Sequence record: SRR2962707_3097
Length of the DNA: 64,000 nt
Strand: one strand, 5' to 3'
Shown: positions 2,467-57,173 of the stretch, in pieces
Layout of the letters: each line of letters opens with the position of its first letter
How positions within the stretch are numbered: position 1 is the first letter of the stretch
Position numbers and translations under genes: made by a program
Notes under the pieces: model-generated
The model's input: the letters and a program-made list of their open reading frames with translations, nothing else
Told to the model about the DNA's origin: nothing
Database searches by the model: none

Positions 2467-3348
2467 ATGACACTTTTATCCAAATTCATTCAGTTAAGTA
2501 TGCTTGCTGTAACGGTGGTTGTATCTGCCAATGCTGTTAGCGCAACACTAGAAACAACGGTGTTTAATCCACAAGAAAAAAGCGTGTTTCCTGTCAGCTC
2601 CGTACTTATTAGTGGCCCAACAGAAGCAATCTTAGTTGACGCACAATTCCAACGAAATGACGCACAATCATTGGTTGAACTCATTAAAAAATCCGGTAAA
2701 AAACTAACCACTATATACATTAGCCACGGTGACCCCGATTATTATTTTGGGCTAGACGTGATTACAGAGGCGTATCCTCATGCCAAGGTATTGGCATCCG
2801 CTAAAACTCAAGCGTATATCAAAGCATCCATGGCGCCTAAAAAAGCGTACTGGGGGCCTATCCTTAAAGAAAATGCACCACAAAAGCTGGTTGTGCCAGA
2901 CGTATTGAAAGGCGATACCTTAATGGTTGATGGTGAAAAAGTGAATATTGTGGGTCTTAACGGCCATGATCCCAAGCATACCTTTGTGTGGATCCCTTCT
3001 ATTAAAACCATGCTTGGTGGTGTAGTGGTGTTTAGCAATATGCACGTTTTCTTAGCGGATACGCAAACCCCTGAATCACGTCAAAATTGGTATAAAACCC
3101 TTGATGTGATTGAACAACTACATCCTACAACCGTTATCCCAGGGCACATGTTAGGTGACAAGCCAATGACTATTCAGTCGGTTAACTTTACCCGTAAATA
3201 CATTCAAGATTTTGAAGCTTCTGCTCAATCTTCAACTAACTCAAATGAATTGATTGATAAAATGAAAGCCATCTATCCGAATATTGGCGGCGATGCGATA
3301 TTGGGTTTAAGCGCCAAAGTTATCATGGGCGAAATGCCTTGGGGATAG
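2467..3348 (+). CDS. Secreted MBL-fold metallo-hydrolase (Vmh-like)
   Basis: Signal peptide, LVDAQF, SHGDPDYYFG variant metal motif, VIPGH. Confidence 0.85.
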   Translation: MTLLSKFIQLSMLAVTVVVSANAVSATLETTVFNPQEKSVFPVSSVLISGPTEAILVDAQFQRNDAQSLVELIKKSGKKLTTIYISHGDPDYYFGLDVITEAYPHAKVLASAKTQAYIKASMAPKKAYWGPILKENAPQKLVVPDVLKGDTLMVDGEKVNIVGLNGHDPKHTFVWIPSIKTMLGGVVVFSNMHVFLADTQTPESRQNWYKTLDVIEQLHPTTVIPGHMLGDKPMTIQSVNFTRKYIQDFEASAQSSTNSNELIDKMKAIYPNIGGDAILGLSAKVIMGEMPWG

Positions 3349-3398
3349 ATAGGGGCGCGGTTACGCGGGGATGAGCCTATGCAGCATTGACGAGGTTT

Positions 3399-3431
3399 AA
3401 AATGGCGATCTTGTGTGAGATCGCCATTTTT
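3399..3431. terminator. Bidirectional intrinsic terminator
   Basis: AAAATGGCGATCT-TGTGTG-AGATCGCCATTTTT between convergent genes. Confidence 0.85.
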
Positions 3432-3475
3432 CGTTGGGTCAGATTGGTTAACTTTATTTCATTGAATTTAAGTTG

Positions 3476-4312
3476 TTAGCGAGTTTGTCGAGCTTTTGGG
3501 ATGATCAATGGCGTGCCAGAAATAGGGTCGTCCAAGATCATACAGGGTAAGCCAAACACTTCTTCTATTAGGGTTTCCGTGACAATGTCTTTTGGCGCGC
3601 CAGTGGCAATGATTTTGCCGGCTTTCATTGCAATAAGGTTGTCTGCATAACGACAAGCATGGTTAAGATCGTGTAACACAGCGACTAAAGTGTGGCCTTG
3701 AAGTCGATTCAAATCCTGAAACAAATCCATTAGCTCAATCTGATGAGCAATGTCCAAATACGTGGTCGGTTCATCGAGCAAGAGTAATGGGGTTTCTTGT
3801 GCCAATGCCATGGCAACCCAAACACGCTGGCGTTGTCCGCCGGACAATTGGTCAACATTGTGCTGCGCAAATTCTGTGATGCTGGTGGCTTTCATGGCGG
3901 CGTCAACGGCGTTTTGATCTTCTTCGCGCCAAGGTTGAAACCATGTTTGGTGAGGGAAACGACCACGGGCAATCAAATCGACGACTTTTATGCCATCTGG
4001 CGCAATGGCGCTCTGCGGTAACAATCCTAATATTTTGGCGACGTCTCGTGTTGCCAGGGTATGAATGTCTTGGCCATTCAGCAGCACTTGGCCTGATTTT
4101 GGCTCAAGCAATCGGCTCATGGCACGCAGTAAGGTAGATTTACCGCAGCCGTTTGGGCCGACAATCACGCTAAATTTTCCCTCAGGAATACGAACAGAAA
4201 GATCCTGCGCAATGATGTTCTGGTCATAGCATAAGGTTATCGATTCTGTTGCGAGTGATAGTTCTGTAAGAGATAACCCCGTTACGTGAGGTTTTACGGA
4301 GGGCGCTGTCAT
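3476..4312 (-). CDS. fepC: Iron-siderophore ABC transporter ATP-binding protein
   Basis: GPNGCGKST, LSGGQRQR, LLLDEPTTYLD, VLHDLN; operon context. Confidence 0.9.
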   Translation of the reverse strand: MTAPSVKPHVTGLSLTELSLATESITLCYDQNIIAQDLSVRIPEGKFSVIVGPNGCGKSTLLRAMSRLLEPKSGQVLLNGQDIHTLATRDVAKILGLLPQSAIAPDGIKVVDLIARGRFPHQTWFQPWREEDQNAVDAAMKATSITEFAQHNVDQLSGGQRQRVWVAMALAQETPLLLLDEPTTYLDIAHQIELMDLFQDLNRLQGHTLVAVLHDLNHACRYADNLIAMKAGKIIATGAPKDIVTETLIEEVFGLPCMILDDPISGTPLIIPKARQTR

Positions 4313-5322
4313 AATTTTCCTTCACGAGTAATCAAATAGACCAAGTAAATACCGCCTAAACTGATAGTGACCAGGCCGACTGGCAAGGTGGAGCCTGCCC
4401 AGCCGTGTTGCGCAATAAAGTCGGCACACAATAACAATAAAGCACCAACATACGCAGACGAACTCAGCGATACGCTGGCACTGTTTTCTAACCGACGGGC
4501 GATTTGTGGGGCGGCCAATGAAATAAACGCGATCGGCCCAGTAATCGCGGTAGCAACGGCAGTGAGCGATACCCCGACAAACATGAGAATCAGGCGAGTT
4601 TTATTGACCGGCACCCCCAAAGCGGCAGCAGTATCGTCCCCCATTTCAAGTAATTTCATCCGCGTATTGAGTAAAAATGCGCACACCATAAAAGCCGAAA
4701 TCAGTGCCGCGGCGGGCAAGATACGAGCCCATGTCATACCGTTTAAGGATCCTGCGCTCCATAATGCAGCGGTCATCGCGGTTTCCAGTGATACGGTGAG
4801 TGATAACCATTGATTAAACGCCGTCAGCGTTGCGCTAATGGCAATGCCCACGATGATTAGGCGAAAGCCAGAATGCCCCTCACGATAAGCAAACAAATAC
4901 ACAAGTAGTGCCGAAAAAAGCCCCCCTAGAATGGCGCCTAACACACTCAACCAGTATAGGTTTCCAAAAAAAGCGATGGAGATCAACACGCCAGTAAAAG
5001 CACCAACGTTAAAACCGGTTATGTCTGGGCTACCAAGCGGGTTACGAACGAGGGATTGAAACACAGCGCCGCTGACGCCCAACGCCGCACCAATCAGCAA
5101 TGCAGAAAACAATCGCGAGGCACGCCATTGCCAAACCACAATGGATTGATAATGGTTGGCTTTTCCGGCGATTAACTGCCAGACATCACTCAGATTGTTG
5201 GCAATGTGATCACCAAGAAAAAGCGTGGCAAAGATCAGCAGTATCGTCAGAAAAAGAACAAGGATTCGTGAGGGCTGGATGCCAAAAAATGAGCGGGCTA
5301 GATTGCTTTGAGGCGGTTTCAT
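4309..5322 (-). CDS. fepG: Iron-siderophore ABC permease (FecCD family)
   Basis: FQSLVRNPLGSPD, EMGDDTAAALG, GPIAFISLAAPQIARRL. Confidence 0.88.
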   Translation of the reverse strand: MKPPQSNLARSFFGIQPSRILVLFLTILLIFATLFLGDHIANNLSDVWQLIAGKANHYQSIVVWQWRASRLFSALLIGAALGVSGAVFQSLVRNPLGSPDITGFNVGAFTGVLISIAFFGNLYWLSVLGAILGGLFSALLVYLFAYREGHSGFRLIIVGIAISATLTAFNQWLSLTVSLETAMTAALWSAGSLNGMTWARILPAAALISAFMVCAFLLNTRMKLLEMGDDTAAALGVPVNKTRLILMFVGVSLTAVATAITGPIAFISLAAPQIARRLENSASVSLSSSAYVGALLLLCADFIAQHGWAGSTLPVGLVTISLGGIYLVYLITREGKL

Positions 5323-6332
5323 AGTCCATTGGCTCCTTTTCTACGCACCAAATAAATCAAAATAGGCGCGCCAATAAAGGCGGTCACAATCGACACTCTA
5401 AGTTCTCCCGCAATTAATACGCGACCAATAATGTCGGCGATCAGTAACAATGTTGGCGTCAAAATAAAGCTAAAAGGGATGATCCAGCGCTGATCTGGCC
5501 CAACCATCCAGCGGGCAATGTGCGGCATCATTAAGCTCACAAAACCAATGGGGCCAGCCGCGGCGGTGGCAGCGCCACAAAGTAAGGTAATGGAGATCAA
5601 ACTTATGATTTGAACACGAGCAGGCTTGCTTCCCAGTGCAGCGGCGAGAGAATCGCCCAGACTAAACGCATTGAGCGTAGGGGAAATAGCCATGGCTAGA
5701 AAGCACCCAAAAATCACCACAGGCGCAATAAACAAGGGCACCATAAGTGTTCGTGAATCCAAGCTGCCAACCGACCAAAATCGAATTTGATCAAACGCAC
5801 TAGGATTGAAAAGCGTCAGGCTGGAACTGAACCCAGCAAACGCCGCGCCGATGGCAACACCAGCCAAGGTCAACTTTAAAGGGTCGACTTTGCCAGCGCC
5901 TGTACTGCCGACAAAATACACTAAAACGCTGGCCAGCAAGGCGCCAATGGCGGAATAAAAAAAGAACTCAGTTAGTTGGGTTGCGCCTAAAAAAACAATC
6001 GCGATGGCAATGGCCAAACTTGCGCCAAGGTTCACGCCAAGTATGCCAGGGTCCGCCAGCGGGTTTCGAGTAATGGCTTGAATCAATGCGCCAGAAGTGC
6101 CAAGAGCCATACCAACAAAGAGTCCATTTAGCGTTCTGGGTAGCCGACCTTCAAGAATGATGGTTTCAGCAAGACCGTGTTCCTTGCCGACTAGCACATT
6201 CCAGAGCATGTCGATAGACAGCGGCTTGGCGCCAATACACAAACTCACCACCATGATAATGGACAATAGTAATATTGACCCCAGTAACCAACTATAACGC
6301 GTTCCACTAGAAACGAAGGGGTTATTCGACAT
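5319..6332 (-). CDS. fepD: Iron-siderophore ABC permease (FecCD family)
   Basis: RLPRT, QAITRNPLADPGILGVN, GPDQRW, GELRVSIVTAFIGAP; ATG at 6332 chosen. Confidence 0.9.
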   Translation of the reverse strand: MSNNPFVSSGTRYSWLLGSILLLSIIMVVSLCIGAKPLSIDMLWNVLVGKEHGLAETIILEGRLPRTLNGLFVGMALGTSGALIQAITRNPLADPGILGVNLGASLAIAIAIVFLGATQLTEFFFYSAIGALLASVLVYFVGSTGAGKVDPLKLTLAGVAIGAAFAGFSSSLTLFNPSAFDQIRFWSVGSLDSRTLMVPLFIAPVVIFGCFLAMAISPTLNAFSLGDSLAAALGSKPARVQIISLISITLLCGAATAAAGPIGFVSLMMPHIARWMVGPDQRWIIPFSFILTPTLLLIADIIGRVLIAGELRVSIVTAFIGAPILIYLVRRKGANGL

Positions 6333-7359
6333 GGTTTTTGTGTCCAAACAGGGTTTGCAATCGTGTTAATAAATGGCTGGCGCTGTAGTAGTCCAAGCGA
6401 AAGGTATCTTCACCAACGGCGTACACTTGATGGTTGATCACTGCGTGAGTAGTTTGTAAATAATGGTTGTTTTTAAACGCGGCGGTTCTGTCTTCGGAAG
6501 CGGAAAATAACAACACAGATTCGCCGGTGACAGCATCGGGGAAGCGCTCGCCTGTGGCGATGACAATGTCGTTACGTAGCCCCATACTGATGTTGCCTTT
6601 AACGGCTTCTGGCACCTTAGCGATGGTGAATCCAAGCTCTTGTAATAGACGGCCTTGGGCGGATTCTGTTGTCCAAATGTTCGCTCCTGTATCGTCTTGG
6701 TAATAGACCATGGCGGAGGTGGGTTGAGGAGGGAGCGTGATGGCTTCTTTTGTGAGCTTTAGCTGTTTTTCGAAGTCTTGAATGACCTGATTGGCTTGGG
6801 TTTCTAGGCCAAGTAAATCACCAAAAATGTGCGCTAATTGCATCCAGCTTTTGTCGTCATAACCAATGACAAGCGTCGGGGCGATGTCTTTTAATTGGTC
6901 GTACAGTTTCATGGCAGAATCCCCGCCAGTGGCGGAGATAATGATGAGATCTGGGTTGGCCTTGATAATGGCTTCGGCATTCGGTTCAGTTTGATACAAA
7001 GACACCACGCCGCGCTCTTCTGCGATGTCTGACCATTGGCGCATAAAGCCTTGTTCGGATGCAACACTGGTATTGGCCATGGTGCCACCCGATGCGACAA
7101 GTGGCGCGTTTATCGCTAACAAGGTGCCAGATAGAGTCACACTGGTGGACACAATTCGAGTCGGCGCCTGTTTCAGAGTTAATAGGCCTTCACGCGTCAT
7201 AATGCTTCTTGGCCAGCCAGAATCACTTTTCTCAACTTGATCTATGGTTAAGGTTTTTTGAGCAGGTGGTGCAGAAGGTGACTGATCACAGCTTGCAAGA
7301 ATGAGGCTGAACAAGAGCAGTGTAAAAACTCGTCTGAAATGCGTAATGCGGCGAACCAT
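6322..7359 (-). CDS. fepB: Ferric-enterobactin-type substrate-binding lipoprotein
   Basis: Lipobox LASC; RIVSTSVTLSGTLLAINAP, SATGGDSA, DTFRLDYYS; ATG 7359 with AGGA RBS. Confidence 0.9.
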   Translation of the reverse strand: MVRRITHFRRVFTLLLFSLILASCDQSPSAPPAQKTLTIDQVEKSDSGWPRSIMTREGLLTLKQAPTRIVSTSVTLSGTLLAINAPLVASGGTMANTSVASEQGFMRQWSDIAEERGVVSLYQTEPNAEAIIKANPDLIIISATGGDSAMKLYDQLKDIAPTLVIGYDDKSWMQLAHIFGDLLGLETQANQVIQDFEKQLKLTKEAITLPPQPTSAMVYYQDDTGANIWTTESAQGRLLQELGFTIAKVPEAVKGNISMGLRNDIVIATGERFPDAVTGESVLLFSASEDRTAAFKNNHYLQTTHAVINHQVYAVGEDTFRLDYYSASHLLTRLQTLFGHKNHVE

Positions 7360-7419
7360 GTCTGAAATCCTGTAGACCAATATGAGCGCGCTATTATATC
7401 GATGAGAATAGGAATTAAC

Positions 7420-7438
7420 ACTATTGATAATCATTTTC
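7420..7438. promoter_or_regulatory. Fur box upstream of fepBDGC
   Basis: ACTATTGATAATCATTTTC matches GATAATGATAATCATTATC at 15/19, about 60 bp upstream of fepB. Confidence 0.85.
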
Positions 7439-7663
7439 ATTGTGTTTTATCTAGATGCCTGAATCAAGAGGTTTAAATTCGCATTGAAATGAGAGTCAAT
7501 TGACCAGCCTTAAGCGACTGAGTATGGTGGAATTTTCGCTTTCTAAAAGAGCCTTAGGGTGGTCTAAAGTTTGTATTGACTCGATCATCTCAGAGCGCTT
7601 ATATACACCACTAAAATACACCACACAGCTTTATCGTAAGTTGTTAAAGGCAGGGCATCTGGC

Positions 7664-8575
7664 ATGTTAAGGACGACCAATCTCAACTTATTACGATCAC
7701 TTCATGTTTTATTGGAGGAATGTCATGTCACCAAAGCGGCGGCTCGCCTTCATATTTCACAATCTGCCGTAAGCCGCCAATTGGCACAACTCAGAGAGTT
7801 ATGCCAAGACCAACTGTTAGTGCGAAATGGCAATCAATTAATCCCAACGGCGAAAGCGGCGACCCTTAAAATTAAGTTGGATTCCCTTCTTGGAGAGTTT
7901 GATGCGCTTCTGACCGAGGTTCCATTTGAGTCTAAAGACTATCAAGGGGAGCTGGTTTTCGCATCGAGTGATTATGTGGCTCAGTATCTATTTCCGGATA
8001 TAGCTCAGCATCTCACTCAGCAGTCTCCTAAACTTGATCTCTCTTTTCAGCTCTGGGAGCCAAATCTAATCAATCAGTTACACGAAACTGGCATTCATCT
8101 AGCGTCCTCGATGCTCGCCCAAAAGCCTGACAATGTATCCAGTATTTATTTAGGCTCAGATGTACCTGTATGCGTGATGGCTAGCGACCATGCCTTAGCC
8201 AAACAAACGAGTATAACGGTTCAAGACATCGTTCAATATACCCATGTTAAAGTGACAGGTGGTGCTGATAAAGACTCCTTAGTTGATCGCCAATTGTCCG
8301 CTAAGGGCTACTCTCGTCGGGTTGCATTAAAAGTGCCTTTTTTTAGTACCGCTATGAGTTTACTGGTAAACAGTGACCGCTTGATGGTACTCCCTGAGCA
8401 CATAGCGACGAACCTAGCCAGGCATTGGGATATAAAAACTCACTCACTACCATTTAAGACACAAGAACAGAAATATTGGCTGTTTTGGCACCCAAAATTT
8501 GATAATGAACCCGCGCATAAATACTTCAGGAATGAGGTCGCTCAAAAATTAAGGACCTCGAAATATTCAGTCTGA
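7664..8575 (+). CDS. LysR-family regulator (NodD/MexT-like)
   Basis: NLNLLRSLHVLLEECHVTKAAARLHISQSAVSRQL, WHPKFDNEPAH. Confidence 0.93.
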   Translation: MLRTTNLNLLRSLHVLLEECHVTKAAARLHISQSAVSRQLAQLRELCQDQLLVRNGNQLIPTAKAATLKIKLDSLLGEFDALLTEVPFESKDYQGELVFASSDYVAQYLFPDIAQHLTQQSPKLDLSFQLWEPNLINQLHETGIHLASSMLAQKPDNVSSIYLGSDVPVCVMASDHALAKQTSITVQDIVQYTHVKVTGGADKDSLVDRQLSAKGYSRRVALKVPFFSTAMSLLVNSDRLMVLPEHIATNLARHWDIKTHSLPFKTQEQKYWLFWHPKFDNEPAHKYFRNEVAQKLRTSKYSV

Positions 8576-8680
8576 TGAAGGTATCGTCATGACTTTATAT
8601 CATCTTGATCATGATTAATTATGATTTCAGTTAATGATCTAGTTCCTATCTAATGAGAGAAAATAAGAGAAGGATAGATT

Positions 8681-9295
8681 ATGACAATCACAGTGTGGTT
8701 ATCACTTTTTAGTATTTGTTTGTTAGGCGCTATGTCACCGGGTCCTAGTCTTGCGATTGTCGCAAAGCACTCTTTAGCAAGCGGTCGAGTCCACGGTATA
8801 GCGGTCGCTTGGTCACACGCAATGGGGATTGGTCTCTACGCTTCCATTGCTATCATGGGGTTGTCTGTCATGATGGAGCAGACGCCACTGATATTTAAAG
8901 GCATTACATTAGCTGGCGCCGCTTACTTAATTTACCTAGGTACGCGTGCTCTGCGCTCAACGGGTGGCTTGGCGGCTAAATTAGCTTCTGGAGAAAAGAC
9001 ATCCATTTTTGAAGGAATGCGTGAGAGCTTTTTGATTTCGATTTTAAGCCCCAAGATCATGCTTTTTTTCACGGCTCTTTTTAGTCCGTTTATAGCAATA
9101 GCCAATGATGTTTTTGATCAGCTTGTGATCGTCTTCACACCATTATTGATTGATGGATTATGGTATAGCTTGATTGCTACTTTTCTGACTAATGCCAAGG
9201 TAATAAACACGGTTCGCGCTAAGGCATTGATCATTGATCGTCTATCTGGTGTTATTTTGATCTTACTTGCATTACGAGTAATTTATACCATTTAG
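8681..9295 (+). CDS. LysE/RhtB family exporter
   Basis: GAMSPGPS, GAAYLIYLG, SPKIMLFF, hydrophobic. Confidence 0.92.
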   Translation: MTITVWLSLFSICLLGAMSPGPSLAIVAKHSLASGRVHGIAVAWSHAMGIGLYASIAIMGLSVMMEQTPLIFKGITLAGAAYLIYLGTRALRSTGGLAAKLASGEKTSIFEGMRESFLISILSPKIMLFFTALFSPFIAIANDVFDQLVIVFTPLLIDGLWYSLIATFLTNAKVINTVRAKALIIDRLSGVILILLALRVIYTI

Positions 9296-9429
9296 AGCGA
9301 ATAAGGATGAGAGCCGTGACCATTGACTGACGTTAATTGTCTCGGTGTGGATCTGCTCCTAACATAGCGGCTGCCTCATTGGCGGATACGTAATTCACCA
9401 TAATACTCTGCAGTCTTCTGCCTAAGCGT

Positions 9430-10350
9430 AAAGCCACGAAACTGGAAACCATTTACGACCGAATTCATGAGATTCGCATGCGAGTAGAAGTGATCAAGCG
9501 TGAGACAGAGATTCAATTTTTGCGCAGTACACTGGATAAGAACGCCATTGTGGTTGACGACGCGGCGTTGCATGAAACGTTGGCTCAACTGGATGATGAC
9601 TTTGCATTTGTGGCCAAGTTGAATCAAGGCGGGGAGTATTTGGATGAAAGCAAACAAGGCCGCATGGACAGCATTGCCCAAAAAACCTGGACTCGAACCC
9701 TCGACGATCGTATTGGCATTTCCCATGAAGAACTAGAAAGGAAAAATAGAACAACAGCCCCTACATTGCCGATCAAAGAGCCATTACTTGCTGACCGGCC
9801 AGAACATCTTTTTGAGCGACCTGACTCAGAAAAATTACCAGAAGGTAATCCATGGGGGTTCAAAATGAATGTGCCTGAATTTCTTTACAATCGAGGGGAA
9901 CTGCACAATCTCTCAATTCAGCGTGGCACGTTGACACCAGAAGACCGTTACAAGATCAATGAGCACATTGTTCAAACCATAAAAATGCTGGATAAGTTGC
10001 CGTTTCCGAAGCATTTAAAGTCTGTGCCTGAGCTTGCTGGTGGCCATCACGAAAAAATGGATGGAACTGGGTATCCTAAACGGTTAACCCGAGATGACAT
10101 GTCGCCCGTTTCTCGAATGATGGCCGTAGCCGACATATTTGAAGCACTGACAGCAGTAGATAGACCCTACAAAAAAGGTAAAAAACTGTCCGAAGCCATT
10201 AAAATCATGTCTTCTATGGTAACCAACCAGCATATCGACCCTGATATCTTCCGGTTGTTTTTAGAATCGAAGGCTTATCTGGCTTACGCTCAAGAATACA
10301 TGAACCCAGATCAGATTGATGACGTGCCAATTGCTGATTATCTTTCGTGA
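9430..10350 (+). pseudogene. 5'-truncated HD-GYP phosphodiesterase
   Basis: Homology starts abruptly at KATKLETIYDRIHEIRMR (9430); retains HHEKMDGTGYP, ADIFEALT, RPYKK; the HD motif and sensor region expected upstream are absent; in-frame TAA at 9391. Confidence 0.8.
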
Positions 10351-55668: not shown

Positions 55669-55905
55669 ATGGAACACCAAGCTGAATTGGACGCTACTGG
55701 GTTGTTATGCCCTGAACCTGTGATGATGCTGCATGTCGAGATGCGCAAATTGGCAGAAAAAAACATTTTAAAAGTGATTGCAACAGACCCTTCAACAACT
55801 CGAGATATCCCTAAGTTCTGTAACTTTTTAGGTCATACTTTGCTTGAGCAAGCGCAAGAGGGTGATACTTACTTTTATTGGATTCAAAAGAAAGCAAGCC
55901 AATAG
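55669..55905 (+). CDS. tusA: Sulfur carrier protein
   Basis: [28 protein letters not shown]. Confidence 0.95.
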
Positions 55906-55943
55906 GGCTTAAAAAGTCTGTCTTGAAAACAAGGATTTAACCC

Positions 55944-55984
55944 AAAAAAAAGCTCATGCCTCTGAATCGTGGCATGAGCTTTTT
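55944..55984. terminator. Bidirectional intrinsic terminator
   Basis: AAAAAAAAGCTCATGCC...GGCATGAGCTTTTT. Confidence 0.88.
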
Positions 55985-56008: not shown

Positions 56009-56602
56009 TTAGGCTACCTGCAATTTGCTTGGCGCGTGTACTTCACCCAATAAAGCGATTTTATAAATATTGCGGAAACTTGAAAAGGTAACATCGATGT
56101 CCAATTTTAATTGGCGCGCAATGTCGCTTGAAGAAATCAATCCACGAATCGTTTTGTTGTTCTCATCAATAACAAGAAGGTGCTGTAGCTCATTGGTTTT
56201 TTGGCTGTACAACAATGATTCAATGTCGGCATTTTTCAATGAGTTGTAAGACAGCGCCAATAGCGTTTCTTTTGGACGCATTAGGTCAGCAACCAAAAGT
56301 TCAGAGCGAGTAAAACCTTTTGCGACTTGCTTGATGAAAGCTTCTTCAGACAGGTCTTCTAACCCTACCACACCGACAAATGCGTTGTTGGCGTCTACCA
56401 CTACTTTCATGCGAACGTGCTCTTTTCTCATTAAGCGAACCAATTCGTCAGCACGAGTACTAGACTCAATAACACGAGGCGCCGCGGTTTTAAAATCTGT
56501 GAATACGCTTAATGCAGGAGAATATAGGTTGATATTCTCGATGGTTACAGGCCAAGTTAATGCATTAACGTCTTTAGTAGAAACATAAGTAAGTGTTTTC
56601 AT
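56009..56602 (-). CDS. Stand-alone CBS-pair protein
   Basis: SPALSVFTDF, HVRMKVVVD...FVGVV, VADLMRP, QHLLVID...IRGLISSSDI; GGAG RBS. Confidence 0.88.
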   Translation of the reverse strand: MKTLTYVSTKDVNALTWPVTIENINLYSPALSVFTDFKTAAPRVIESSTRADELVRLMRKEHVRMKVVVDANNAFVGVVGLEDLSEEAFIKQVAKGFTRSELLVADLMRPKETLLALSYNSLKNADIESLLYSQKTNELQHLLVIDENNKTIRGLISSSDIARQLKLDIDVTFSSFRNIYKIALLGEVHAPSKLQVA

Positions 56603-56659
56603 GATAGTTCTCCAAAAATAGATAAAAAAAGTAAATTGGTGAGTTATATCAAGAAAACA
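56594..56659 (-). promoter_or_regulatory. Predicted hairpin sequestering the SD and start codon of the CBS gene
   Basis: mRNA UGUUUUCUUGAUA (56659-56647) pairs 12/13 with UAUCAUGAAAACA (56606-56594, contains the AUG); CUC(AC)CAA can pair with UUGGAG (SD). Confidence 0.75.
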
Positions 56660-56949
56660 GGAGGGGCCCTTGGTTTGATTCTATCAGAAGGTGATGTGCT
56701 AATAGGATGACGGTAAAATGAAAACAGCTTGTTGTCTTTTTTAGTCGGCACTACTAATGAAAGGTATAATGCGACGTAGCTGTCATCTATTGGGTCAACA
56801 TCTAAATCAGGAATGGCGGCTTCACAGCATATCTGCCCAGTCGCTGGCACCCAGCGCTGTTTACTTTCTTCTTGTGCGTTCGCGCGTTGAGACAGGCTCA
56901 ACAAAGACGATGCGATAACGACAAGAATGATAAGTAGATGGAAGTTCAT
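56644..56949 (-). CDS. Putative secretion-monitoring leader / ribosome-arrest peptide (signal peptide + C-terminal RAPP)
   Basis: MNFHLLIILVVIASSLLSLSQRANA signal-like N-terminus, CC at 41-42, RAPP at 94-97 of 101 aa; alternative start at 57024. Confidence 0.7.
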   Translation of the reverse strand: MNFHLLIILVVIASSLLSLSQRANAQEESKQRWVPATGQICCEAAIPDLDVDPIDDSYVALYLSLVVPTKKDNKLFSFYRHPISTSPSDRIKPRAPPVFLI

Positions 56950-57173
56950 AAAACGCCTTAACTCATGATTTATATCATTAAATATATTCTTCTCCGGAAA
57001 TAAATCCAGCGTTTTTTGATACATGTCGCGTATTTACACTATCCAATATCTTTTTTTGGGATCTCGTTCACTATAAGGACGAAACAGGGACCTTTGCAGA
57101 CCAGTTTTAAAGCATTAGTAAGTGATGTGTGAGGGCGCTACATATATAAGAACCGCTTGCGCCGTCTTTCAAT

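Follow-up and report, generated by a model that had tools for sequence, protein, structure and literature searches.

A putative RAPP-type arrest leader upstream of a stand-alone CBS-pair gene in Marinomonas and related bacteria

Described arrest leaders and the present locus

Few devices are known through which a nascent chain can report a physical state of the cell, and arrest peptides are among them. Until 2025 they had been linked almost wholly to the export machinery and to one copper system. Here we describe a leader open reading frame (ORF) of 101 residues, with R-A-P-P close to its C-terminus, which lies directly upstream of a gene for a stand-alone pair of CBS domains in a stretch of 64,000 nucleotides (nt) from sequence record SRR2962707_3097 (the window). 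This ORF probably encodes a RAPP-type regulatory arrest peptide, which would act as a 'monitoring substrate' in the manner of SecM, VemP and ApdP and would unmask translation of the CBS gene when export fails. As a kind, RAPP-type arrest leaders are already published (Fujiwara 2024, 2025); what is unusual here is the cytoplasmic target and the strict geometry.

Bacterial ribosomes stall at RAPP and RGPP tails; these resist EF-P, and proteomes avoid them (PMC12992588). Stalling has been shown for seven cases from Streptomyces lividans and for CruR (Fujiwara et al., EMBO J 2025, PMC12992588). The closest described systems are the leaders of the RQH or ApdA/ApdP type found before secA and secDF (uDF_RQH_Enterobacterales of Alteromonas naphthalenivorans and uA_RQH_Pseudomonadales; PMC10987492, PMC7897499). 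Like the leader in the window, these are small upstream ORFs with an N-terminal export signal, a spacer and a C-terminal R-A/G-P-P a few codons ahead of the stop, and beyond this the sequences have little in common. In Alteromonas, induction of secDF2 by an RGPP upstream ORF depends on the opening of a stem-loop that masks the Shine-Dalgarno (SD) site (PMC10987492); such a stem was shown by experiment in the Alteromonas member and is predicted at the present locus. The RAPP/RGPP upstream ORFs reported in 2025 belong to the same class, and are small secretory or membrane proteins placed before genes unconnected with export, in TonB-receptor, YcnI, PCuAC, PepSY, DsbA/thioredoxin and ECF-sigma groups (PMC12992588).

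The leader ORF runs from 56949 to 56644 on the minus strand (ATG 56949-56947, TAA 56646-56644), with an SD sequence, AAGG, 6 nt 5' of the ATG. Its N-terminus resembles a signal peptide, a short polar end being followed by a hydrophobic run and A-N-A|Q. A spacer of about 70 residues with an acidic cluster then leads to the C-terminus, K-P-R-A-P-P-V-F-L-I. The R-A-P-P codons (AGG GCC CCT CCT, 56670-56659) form the predicted arrest site, and four further codons (V F L I) precede the stop. The stop is separated by 41 nt from the start of the CBS gene (197 residues, 56602..56009, minus strand; Pfam CBS, E=3.8e-11, in two stretches), which has GGAG (56613-56610) 7 nt ahead of its ATG at 56602-56600. 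The leader can also be read as 126 residues from 57024, without an SD site, and the start at 56949 was therefore kept. Of the 504 six-frame ORFs of at least 45 residues in the window, only the leader itself has R-[AGSD]-P-P within its last 16 residues. The initial annotation, made from the window alone, had described this layout, namely a signal-like start, R-A-P-P at 56670-56659, the CBS gene 41 nt further on and a terminator on either side, and it was correct in every detail.

Compared with described systems, the locus has the further marks of a RAPP-like arrest peptide: a small ORF of no known family directly upstream of its neighbour, a hydrophobic N-terminus and a conserved C-terminal R-A/G-P-P. 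It differs from the RQH and ApdA/ApdP type in what follows. There the downstream gene encodes a Sec or YidC component, while here it encodes a cytoplasmic CBS pair, so that no feedback loop is evident. In the strict sense, a Sec/YidC 'monitoring substrate' precedes a gene for localisation machinery; this leader precedes a CBS pair and then a terminator. With CruR, the copper-responsive leader of Bordetella pertussis, it shares an exported leader with RAPP near the C-terminus and control (here predicted) of the next gene. It lacks DUF2946, conserved Cys or His residues and a metal-related target. The cases described by Fujiwara and colleagues are likewise mostly tied to metals or to disulfide formation, with conserved Cys/His that the CBS leaders lack (PMC12992588). 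With SecM and VemP it shares the proposed logic of release by pulling, in which a prolonged stall opens an RNA structure that masks an SD. The arrest sequences, however, are different: in SecM the RAGP belongs to a longer conserved motif, and the long motif of VemP is unrelated. The target genes differ as well.

The initial annotation knew of no description of such a pairing with a CBS gene. RAPP/RGPP ORFs upstream of diverse non-export genes are in fact already published (PMC12992588), which tempers the claim of novelty. No CBS gene is named in the main text of that paper, the figure lists and supplements of which may include this gene class, and occurrence counts show that 'CBS' is also absent from PMC10987492 and PMC10951233. 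A literature search joining RAPP, arrest peptide and CBS returned only a web address ('CBS') or a purification method ('RAPPL'), although figures or supplements could hold a mention.

Conservation of the leader and its motif

Homologues of the CBS protein were collected with the nearest genome (G001) as the centre of the searches. The gene is present in 33 of 37 Marinomonas genomes. All 30 of the Marinomonas loci fetched have a co-oriented ORF with a hydrophobic N-terminus that ends 35-55 nt before the CBS ATG, and all of these ORFs carry the motif (RAPP in 27, RGPP in two and RTPP in one), 2-7 codons ahead of the stop. Two divergent CBS copies within the genus (45-48% identity) also have the leader. 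In an even sample of the order, a CBS homologue was found in 77 of 401 genomes and 34 of 157 genera (E<=1e-15). Outside Marinomonas, 60 loci of the order were fetched and a leader was present in 47, of which 41 lie within 160 nt of the CBS gene and six further upstream. In a sample of the class, only two genomes outside the order had a CBS homologue (E<=1e-20), and one of these two homologues has a leader ending V-R-A-P-P-A-F, 39 nt upstream.

The related loci are not independent, and the leaders from outside Marinomonas share only the motif with the leader in the window, with no alignable sequence. As a background, the same tail motif (R-[AGSD]-P-P within the last 16 residues) was scored in the other ORFs of the fetched loci, and occurs in five of 2341. 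It had been predicted from the window that orthologous CBS genes would be preceded by an exported ORF with a C-terminal RAPP or RGPP, and this is what was found, while the remainder of the peptide diverges.

Some variant loci are worth adding. At L045 (G059:C11) a leader-like ORF ends with Q-A-P-P, 85 nt before a CBS homologue of 30% identity; the published RQH family also admits QAPP as a variant (PMC10987492). At L041 (G045:C10, approximately 1323-2550) there are two tandem CBS-pair genes, and the ORF before the first of them has a signal-peptide-like start and ends I-R-A-S-P-V-T-V-K, with R-A-S-P in place of R-A-P-P. In several genera (L062, L064, L065, L067, L097/L098) the leader ends 146-191 nt before the CBS gene, compared with 35-125 nt elsewhere.

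The leaders were then treated as a set of 87 unique sequences. The motif is RAPP in 67, RGPP in 13, RSPP in five, and RTPP and RDPP in one each. It is spelled in 77 distinct ways at the level of its 12 nt, with all six Arg codons and all four codons each of Ala and Pro in use, from which it follows that the motif is selected as protein. The residue just before the Arg is Ile in 38 leaders and Pro in 34, and the tail after Pro-Pro is 2-4 residues long in 73.

The overall architecture is equally regular. A strongly hydrophobic window of 12 residues (mean Kyte-Doolittle at least 2.0) is present in 86 of the 87 leaders, the exception being cut by a contig end, and a cleavage site of the A-x-A type can be seen by eye in the Marinomonas leaders. 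The spacer from the hydrophobic window to the Arg has a median length of 75 residues, with an interquartile range of 73-77, and in most Marinomonas loci the distance from the start to the Arg is 93 residues. One mark by which leaders of the RQH type are recognised is that more than 30 residues separate the localisation signal from the arrest site (PMC10987492), as they do here. The published spacers of Sec monitors are long and variable (131.5 or 71 for SecM, 133 for VemP; PMC10987492), whereas the range here is narrow. Within Marinomonas the first approximately 35 residues of the mature leader are also conserved.

The acidic cluster is a fixed feature of all 87 leaders. At positions 36-45 before the Arg, 27-38% of residues are Asp or Glu, compared with at most 9% at positions 1-35, a step that is equally sharp in the 35 Marinomonas-like and the 52 other leaders. 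At least four Asp or Glu residues occur at positions -55 to -36 in 83 of the 87 leaders. Over all leaders the mean there is 5.4, and the 35 residues closest to the motif hold 1.9 on average. With a spacer of fixed length, placement of the cluster relative to the stall site is indistinguishable from placement relative to the signal peptide. A fixed cluster of this kind is not mentioned for the RQH-type families, the word 'acidic' being absent from the main text of PMC10987492.

The leader in the window contains a Cys-Cys pair, which the initial annotation took as a hint of a metal or redox input. Such a pair is present in only three of the 87 leaders, and the mature part has no Cys at all in 32, so that this part of the interpretation falls away. 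The comparison with leaders of the DUF2946 type does not hold either, since the leader has no family match in Pfam (E<=0.1) or NCBIfam, DUF2946 included. Two findings support the main line of the earlier interpretation, namely the conserved C-terminal motif and an RNA layout that fits stall-dependent unmasking, to which we now turn.

RNA layout, proposed mechanism and alternatives

The minimum-energy fold of the junction contains a predicted masking hairpin. Its 5' arm (56658-56636, minus strand) takes in the final four codons of the leader, the stop and the next 8 nt; its 3' arm (56615-56595, minus strand) takes in the SD, the ATG and codons 2-3 of the CBS gene. Outside this hairpin the U-rich intergenic region is unstructured. 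The pairing was analysed across 77 unique loci with an adjacent leader by calculating the duplex energy of a short window with the start region of the next gene (-18 to +12), each window being ranked against all windows of the same length in its own leader ORF, with the best 10% as the cut-off. The 15 nt directly after the Pro-Pro codons fall in the best 10% in 39 of the 77 loci (mean z -1.61). Two control segments behave differently: the 15 nt before the Arg codon reach the cut-off in six loci (mean z -0.05), and the 15 nt starting 15 nt further downstream in three (mean z +0.45). The pairing of the segment after the motif is stronger in the set from outside Marinomonas (25 of 42). The partner varies by lineage, being the start-codon region in many Marinomonas and the SD elsewhere. 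The RAPP codons alone are in the best 10% in 36 of the 77 loci (mean z -1.20), although C-rich RAPP codons would pair somewhat with a purine-rich SD without any selection, which may partly explain this count and to that extent weakens the case set out below.

By analogy with the work on CruR and on ApdA/ApdP, as told in PMC12992588, the first Pro codon would lie in the P site and the second in the A site at the predicted stall. The stretch that pairs is the stretch that a ribosome stalled in this position would cover.

On the basis of these observations, we propose the following mechanism, in which the stall, the export of the leader by Sec, the release by export and the direction of CBS regulation are all inferred for this locus. 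The signal peptide would bring the nascent leader chain to the Sec translocon during translation, and the ribosome would stall at R-A-P-P with Pro-tRNA in the A site. When export is working, the pull on the chain would free the stall and termination would take place four codons later; the hairpin between the leader end and the CBS SD and AUG could then form, and translation of the CBS gene would be low. When export is slow or blocked, the stalled ribosome would occupy the 5' arm, the CBS start would be free, and the CBS-pair protein would be made. The family would in this way couple an arrest device to a cytoplasmic CBS sensor protein. The strict geometry leads to a clear prediction of where the pulling force acts, and the locus offers a natural system for two questions posed in PMC12992588, namely the releasing force in arrest peptides outside the Sec group and their regulatory targets.

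A number of observations weigh against this interpretation. The target is a cytoplasmic CBS protein, with no evident reason to answer to export. Six paralogous CBS copies within the genus (L033-L038; 39-41% identity) have no RAPP leader, and 12 of the 60 loci outside Marinomonas are without one, with one more doubtful; the CBS family is therefore not dependent on the leader. The signal-peptide calls rest on a hydrophobicity window and on visual inspection. The approximately 20 residues ahead of the motif are poorly conserved, though published work ties such residues to arrest. The hairpin in the window is by itself unexceptional, with z between -1.4 and -1.6, and 15-17 of 200 shuffled sequences fold equally well; across the loci, the segment after the motif is outside the top 10% in 38 of 77. 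The contigs from RNA libraries described below are no proof of a single transcript, and such libraries may hold DNA. As a separate observation, Marinomonas genomes often have one CBS copy behind a leader together with one leaderless copy.

Three other explanations have been considered. The leader could sense a ligand in the manner of CruR, with a metal, a redox signal or a periplasmic ligand (for example a divalent cation on the acidic cluster) setting the stall time in place of export capacity. CruR shows a RAPP leader responding to a ligand (PMC12992588), the acidic cluster is at a fixed place across leaders, and the fold matches of the target include the CBS modules of CorC and MgtE, both Mg2+ transporters. 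These matches are however generic to all CBS pairs, and the scarcity of Cys-Cys pairs, the frequent absence of any mature Cys and the lack of DUF2946 or any other family match all argue in the other direction, as does the unit itself, which in the window has no transporter or metal gene and has terminators on both sides. We regard this explanation as very unlikely. A control at the level of transcription appears to us just as improbable. Here a ribosome at RAPP would block the loading of Rho, or refold the RNA, and thereby allow RNA polymerase to continue into the CBS gene. Short ORFs are commonly followed by Rho-dependent polarity, and the U-rich intergenic region, unstructured outside the hairpin, would suit it; on the other hand, the terminator scan gave no intrinsic terminator between the two ORFs, the conserved complementarity is directed at the SD and AUG of the next gene, and RNA-library contigs span the junction.

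Finally, the product of the ORF might be a small protein, secreted or periplasmic, that has its own separate function; its RAPP tail would then be a mere pause or incidental and would have no control over CBS. This would account for the conservation of the first approximately 35 mature residues in Marinomonas, and published mutational work has found RAPP alone to be insufficient for arrest (PMC12992588). Beyond Marinomonas, however, only the architecture is conserved. Motifs like RAPP are strongly avoided in ordinary proteins (PMC12992588), yet are kept near the stop in 87 leaders, and the link to a downstream CBS or HPF-like gene, together with the pairing to its start site, persists across families. 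We give this explanation hardly any weight.

The CBS protein, HPF-fold neighbours and the transcription unit

The CBS protein in the window is 100% identical to one of Marinomonas arenicola, and its closest relatives are all from Marinomonas. By appearance it is cytoplasmic. Against NCBIfam it gives weak partial matches only. The AlphaFold2 model, with a predicted local distance difference test (pLDDT) score of 84.3, is an ordinary CBS pair with approximately 28 poorly structured residues at the N-terminus and a short C-terminal helix. Foldseek identified 395 PDB matches at E<=0.001, with CBS-pair proteins on top and the CBS modules of CorC and MgtE at ranks 17, 34, 42 and 50; the matches are generic to CBS pairs and give no functional clue. 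The invariant or nearly invariant residues include G77, D83, G154 and S157, which fall in G-h-h-(S/T/G)-x-x-D stretches. We take these stretches to be the ribose-binding signature of CBS domains. Longer fused relatives were not found at E<=1e-10 among proteins of 358-2000 residues, which is weak evidence.

A possible lead to function comes from other genomes of the order. In three of these (G278, G202 and G329) the leader and the CBS gene are separated by a gene of 111-113 residues, at a distance of 4-15 nt from the CBS gene. The product of this small gene has the HPF/RaiA fold, which is clear only by fold search: by sequence, Pfam gives nothing useful, NCBIfam gives yfiA at E=0.024, and a profile of four sequences matches an HPF in the PDB at E=0.0031. 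Here the SD of the HPF-like gene is the pairing partner, either of the stretch that follows RAPP or of RAPP itself. G278 has a second RAPP leader before a second HPF-like copy alone. The HPF-like gene is found in seven of the 401 genomes of the order (E<=0.001), with a strong match in three only. It was absent from all 13 Marinomonas genomes searched with the same query and from the window, and the CBS protein in the window has no HPF domain, either by Pfam or in the AlphaFold2 model. A complex prediction for the CBS and HPF-like proteins of the L063 genome gave a score of 0.00 without controls, and carries no weight either way.

The cluster in G278 (L130, G278:C5:686500-699500, positions 2821-10338) is larger than the others described here. 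It has RAPP leaders at 2821-3129 and 9654-9938, HPF/RaiA-fold genes at 3196-3531 and 9994-10338, and CBS-pair genes at 3547-4113 and 7825-8394, and it also holds a SulP/STAS permease, a CitMHS-type transporter and a COX15/CtaA gene in between.

If a CBS pair dimerises, the result would be a disc of four CBS domains. The archaeal hibernation factors HibA and AHA consist of a four-CBS module fused to an HPF/RaiA domain (PMC13324472, PMC13728122). The likeness to the present family is that an HPF/RaiA-fold gene adjoins the CBS gene behind a RAPP leader in the three genomes; the difference is that the domains are fused in the archaeal factors and encoded by separate genes here, none of them HPF-like in the window, and the generic fold matches of the CBS pair in the window show no specific similarity to these factors. 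The HPF-fold neighbour therefore may point to an action of the CBS protein on ribosomes or together with them, and for the window this is no more than a lead. If it is a true clue, membrane or export stress would be linked to bacterial ribosome hibernation, and the archaeal CBS-HPF factors would have a bacterial counterpart.

The position of the acidic cluster suggests a more specific version of this idea. At the predicted stall the cluster would lie 38-57 residues from the peptidyl-transferase centre. Nascent segments reach SecYEG at approximately 45 residues from that centre, according to force-profile work (PMC7886326), and the membrane potential pulls on acidic residues and frees a SecM stall (Ismail et al. 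2015, as described in the review PMC6028853). The agreement between these distances, together with the pull of the potential, suggests that the leader could be a sensor of membrane energisation, as opposed to a general monitor of export, with ribosome silencing as its output through the CBS-pair protein and, where present, the HPF-fold protein. Loss of membrane potential would weaken the outward pull on the acidic residues and lengthen the stall. The stall would induce the CBS-pair protein, likely an adenine-nucleotide sensor, and in the three genomes also the HPF/RaiA-fold protein, the two forming a bacterial two-gene counterpart of HibA/AHA. Membrane energy stress would then be coupled directly to the silencing of ribosomes. 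We consider this a speculative proposal that is unlikely to hold; the distances of 38-57 residues would not apply to a leader that SecA exports at a site apart from the junction of ribosome and SecY.

Expression of the leader and the CBS gene was assessed from contigs of four RNA-library runs. Two runs of one study (X2 and X3) each gave a single whole contig, of 927 and 935 nt, at 56036-56962 and 56028-56962. These cover both ORFs and the junction and nothing beyond, ending 13 nt above the leader ATG and approximately 20-27 nt short of the CBS stop. Run X6, from another study, gave a contig at 56072-56668, and a third study gave four short pieces. The contigs hint, though weakly, at expression of the leader and the CBS gene as one unit, and the contig-free parts (below 56028 and above 56962) do not alone mark transcript ends.

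A candidate -10 element, TATATT, lies at 56986-56981 on the minus strand, in a position conserved in most Marinomonas loci, and may belong to the promoter of the two-gene unit; the X2 and X3 contigs stop a short distance downstream of it, at 56962. The scan for consensus promoters listed none for the unit. An extended -10 pattern was present in only two of 34 Marinomonas-like loci and was dropped in favour of the conserved TATATT. Most Marinomonas loci have a promoter-like block before the leader, at 56981-57010 in the window, which consists of G-A-T-T-T-A, approximately 12-17 nt and TATATT. Read in the frame of the leader this block resembles conserved peptide, which explains the apparent 126-residue variant of the ORF.

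On the upstream side, a terminator-like hairpin found by the hairpin scan after a MaoC-like gene (57199-57177, minus strand) closes the preceding unit. On the downstream side, a terminator hairpin after the CBS gene (55980-55943, minus strand) was read from the sequence. It has a perfect stem of 10 bp (55980-55971 with 55960-55951), a loop of 10 nt and T8, and is unlisted in the terminator scan because the scan accepts loops of 3-8 nt only. A gene of the TusA family (55669-55905, plus strand; Pfam E=8.8e-22) converges with the CBS gene, and the hairpin between them, at 55943-55980, has T-runs on one side and A-runs on the other and could terminate both genes.

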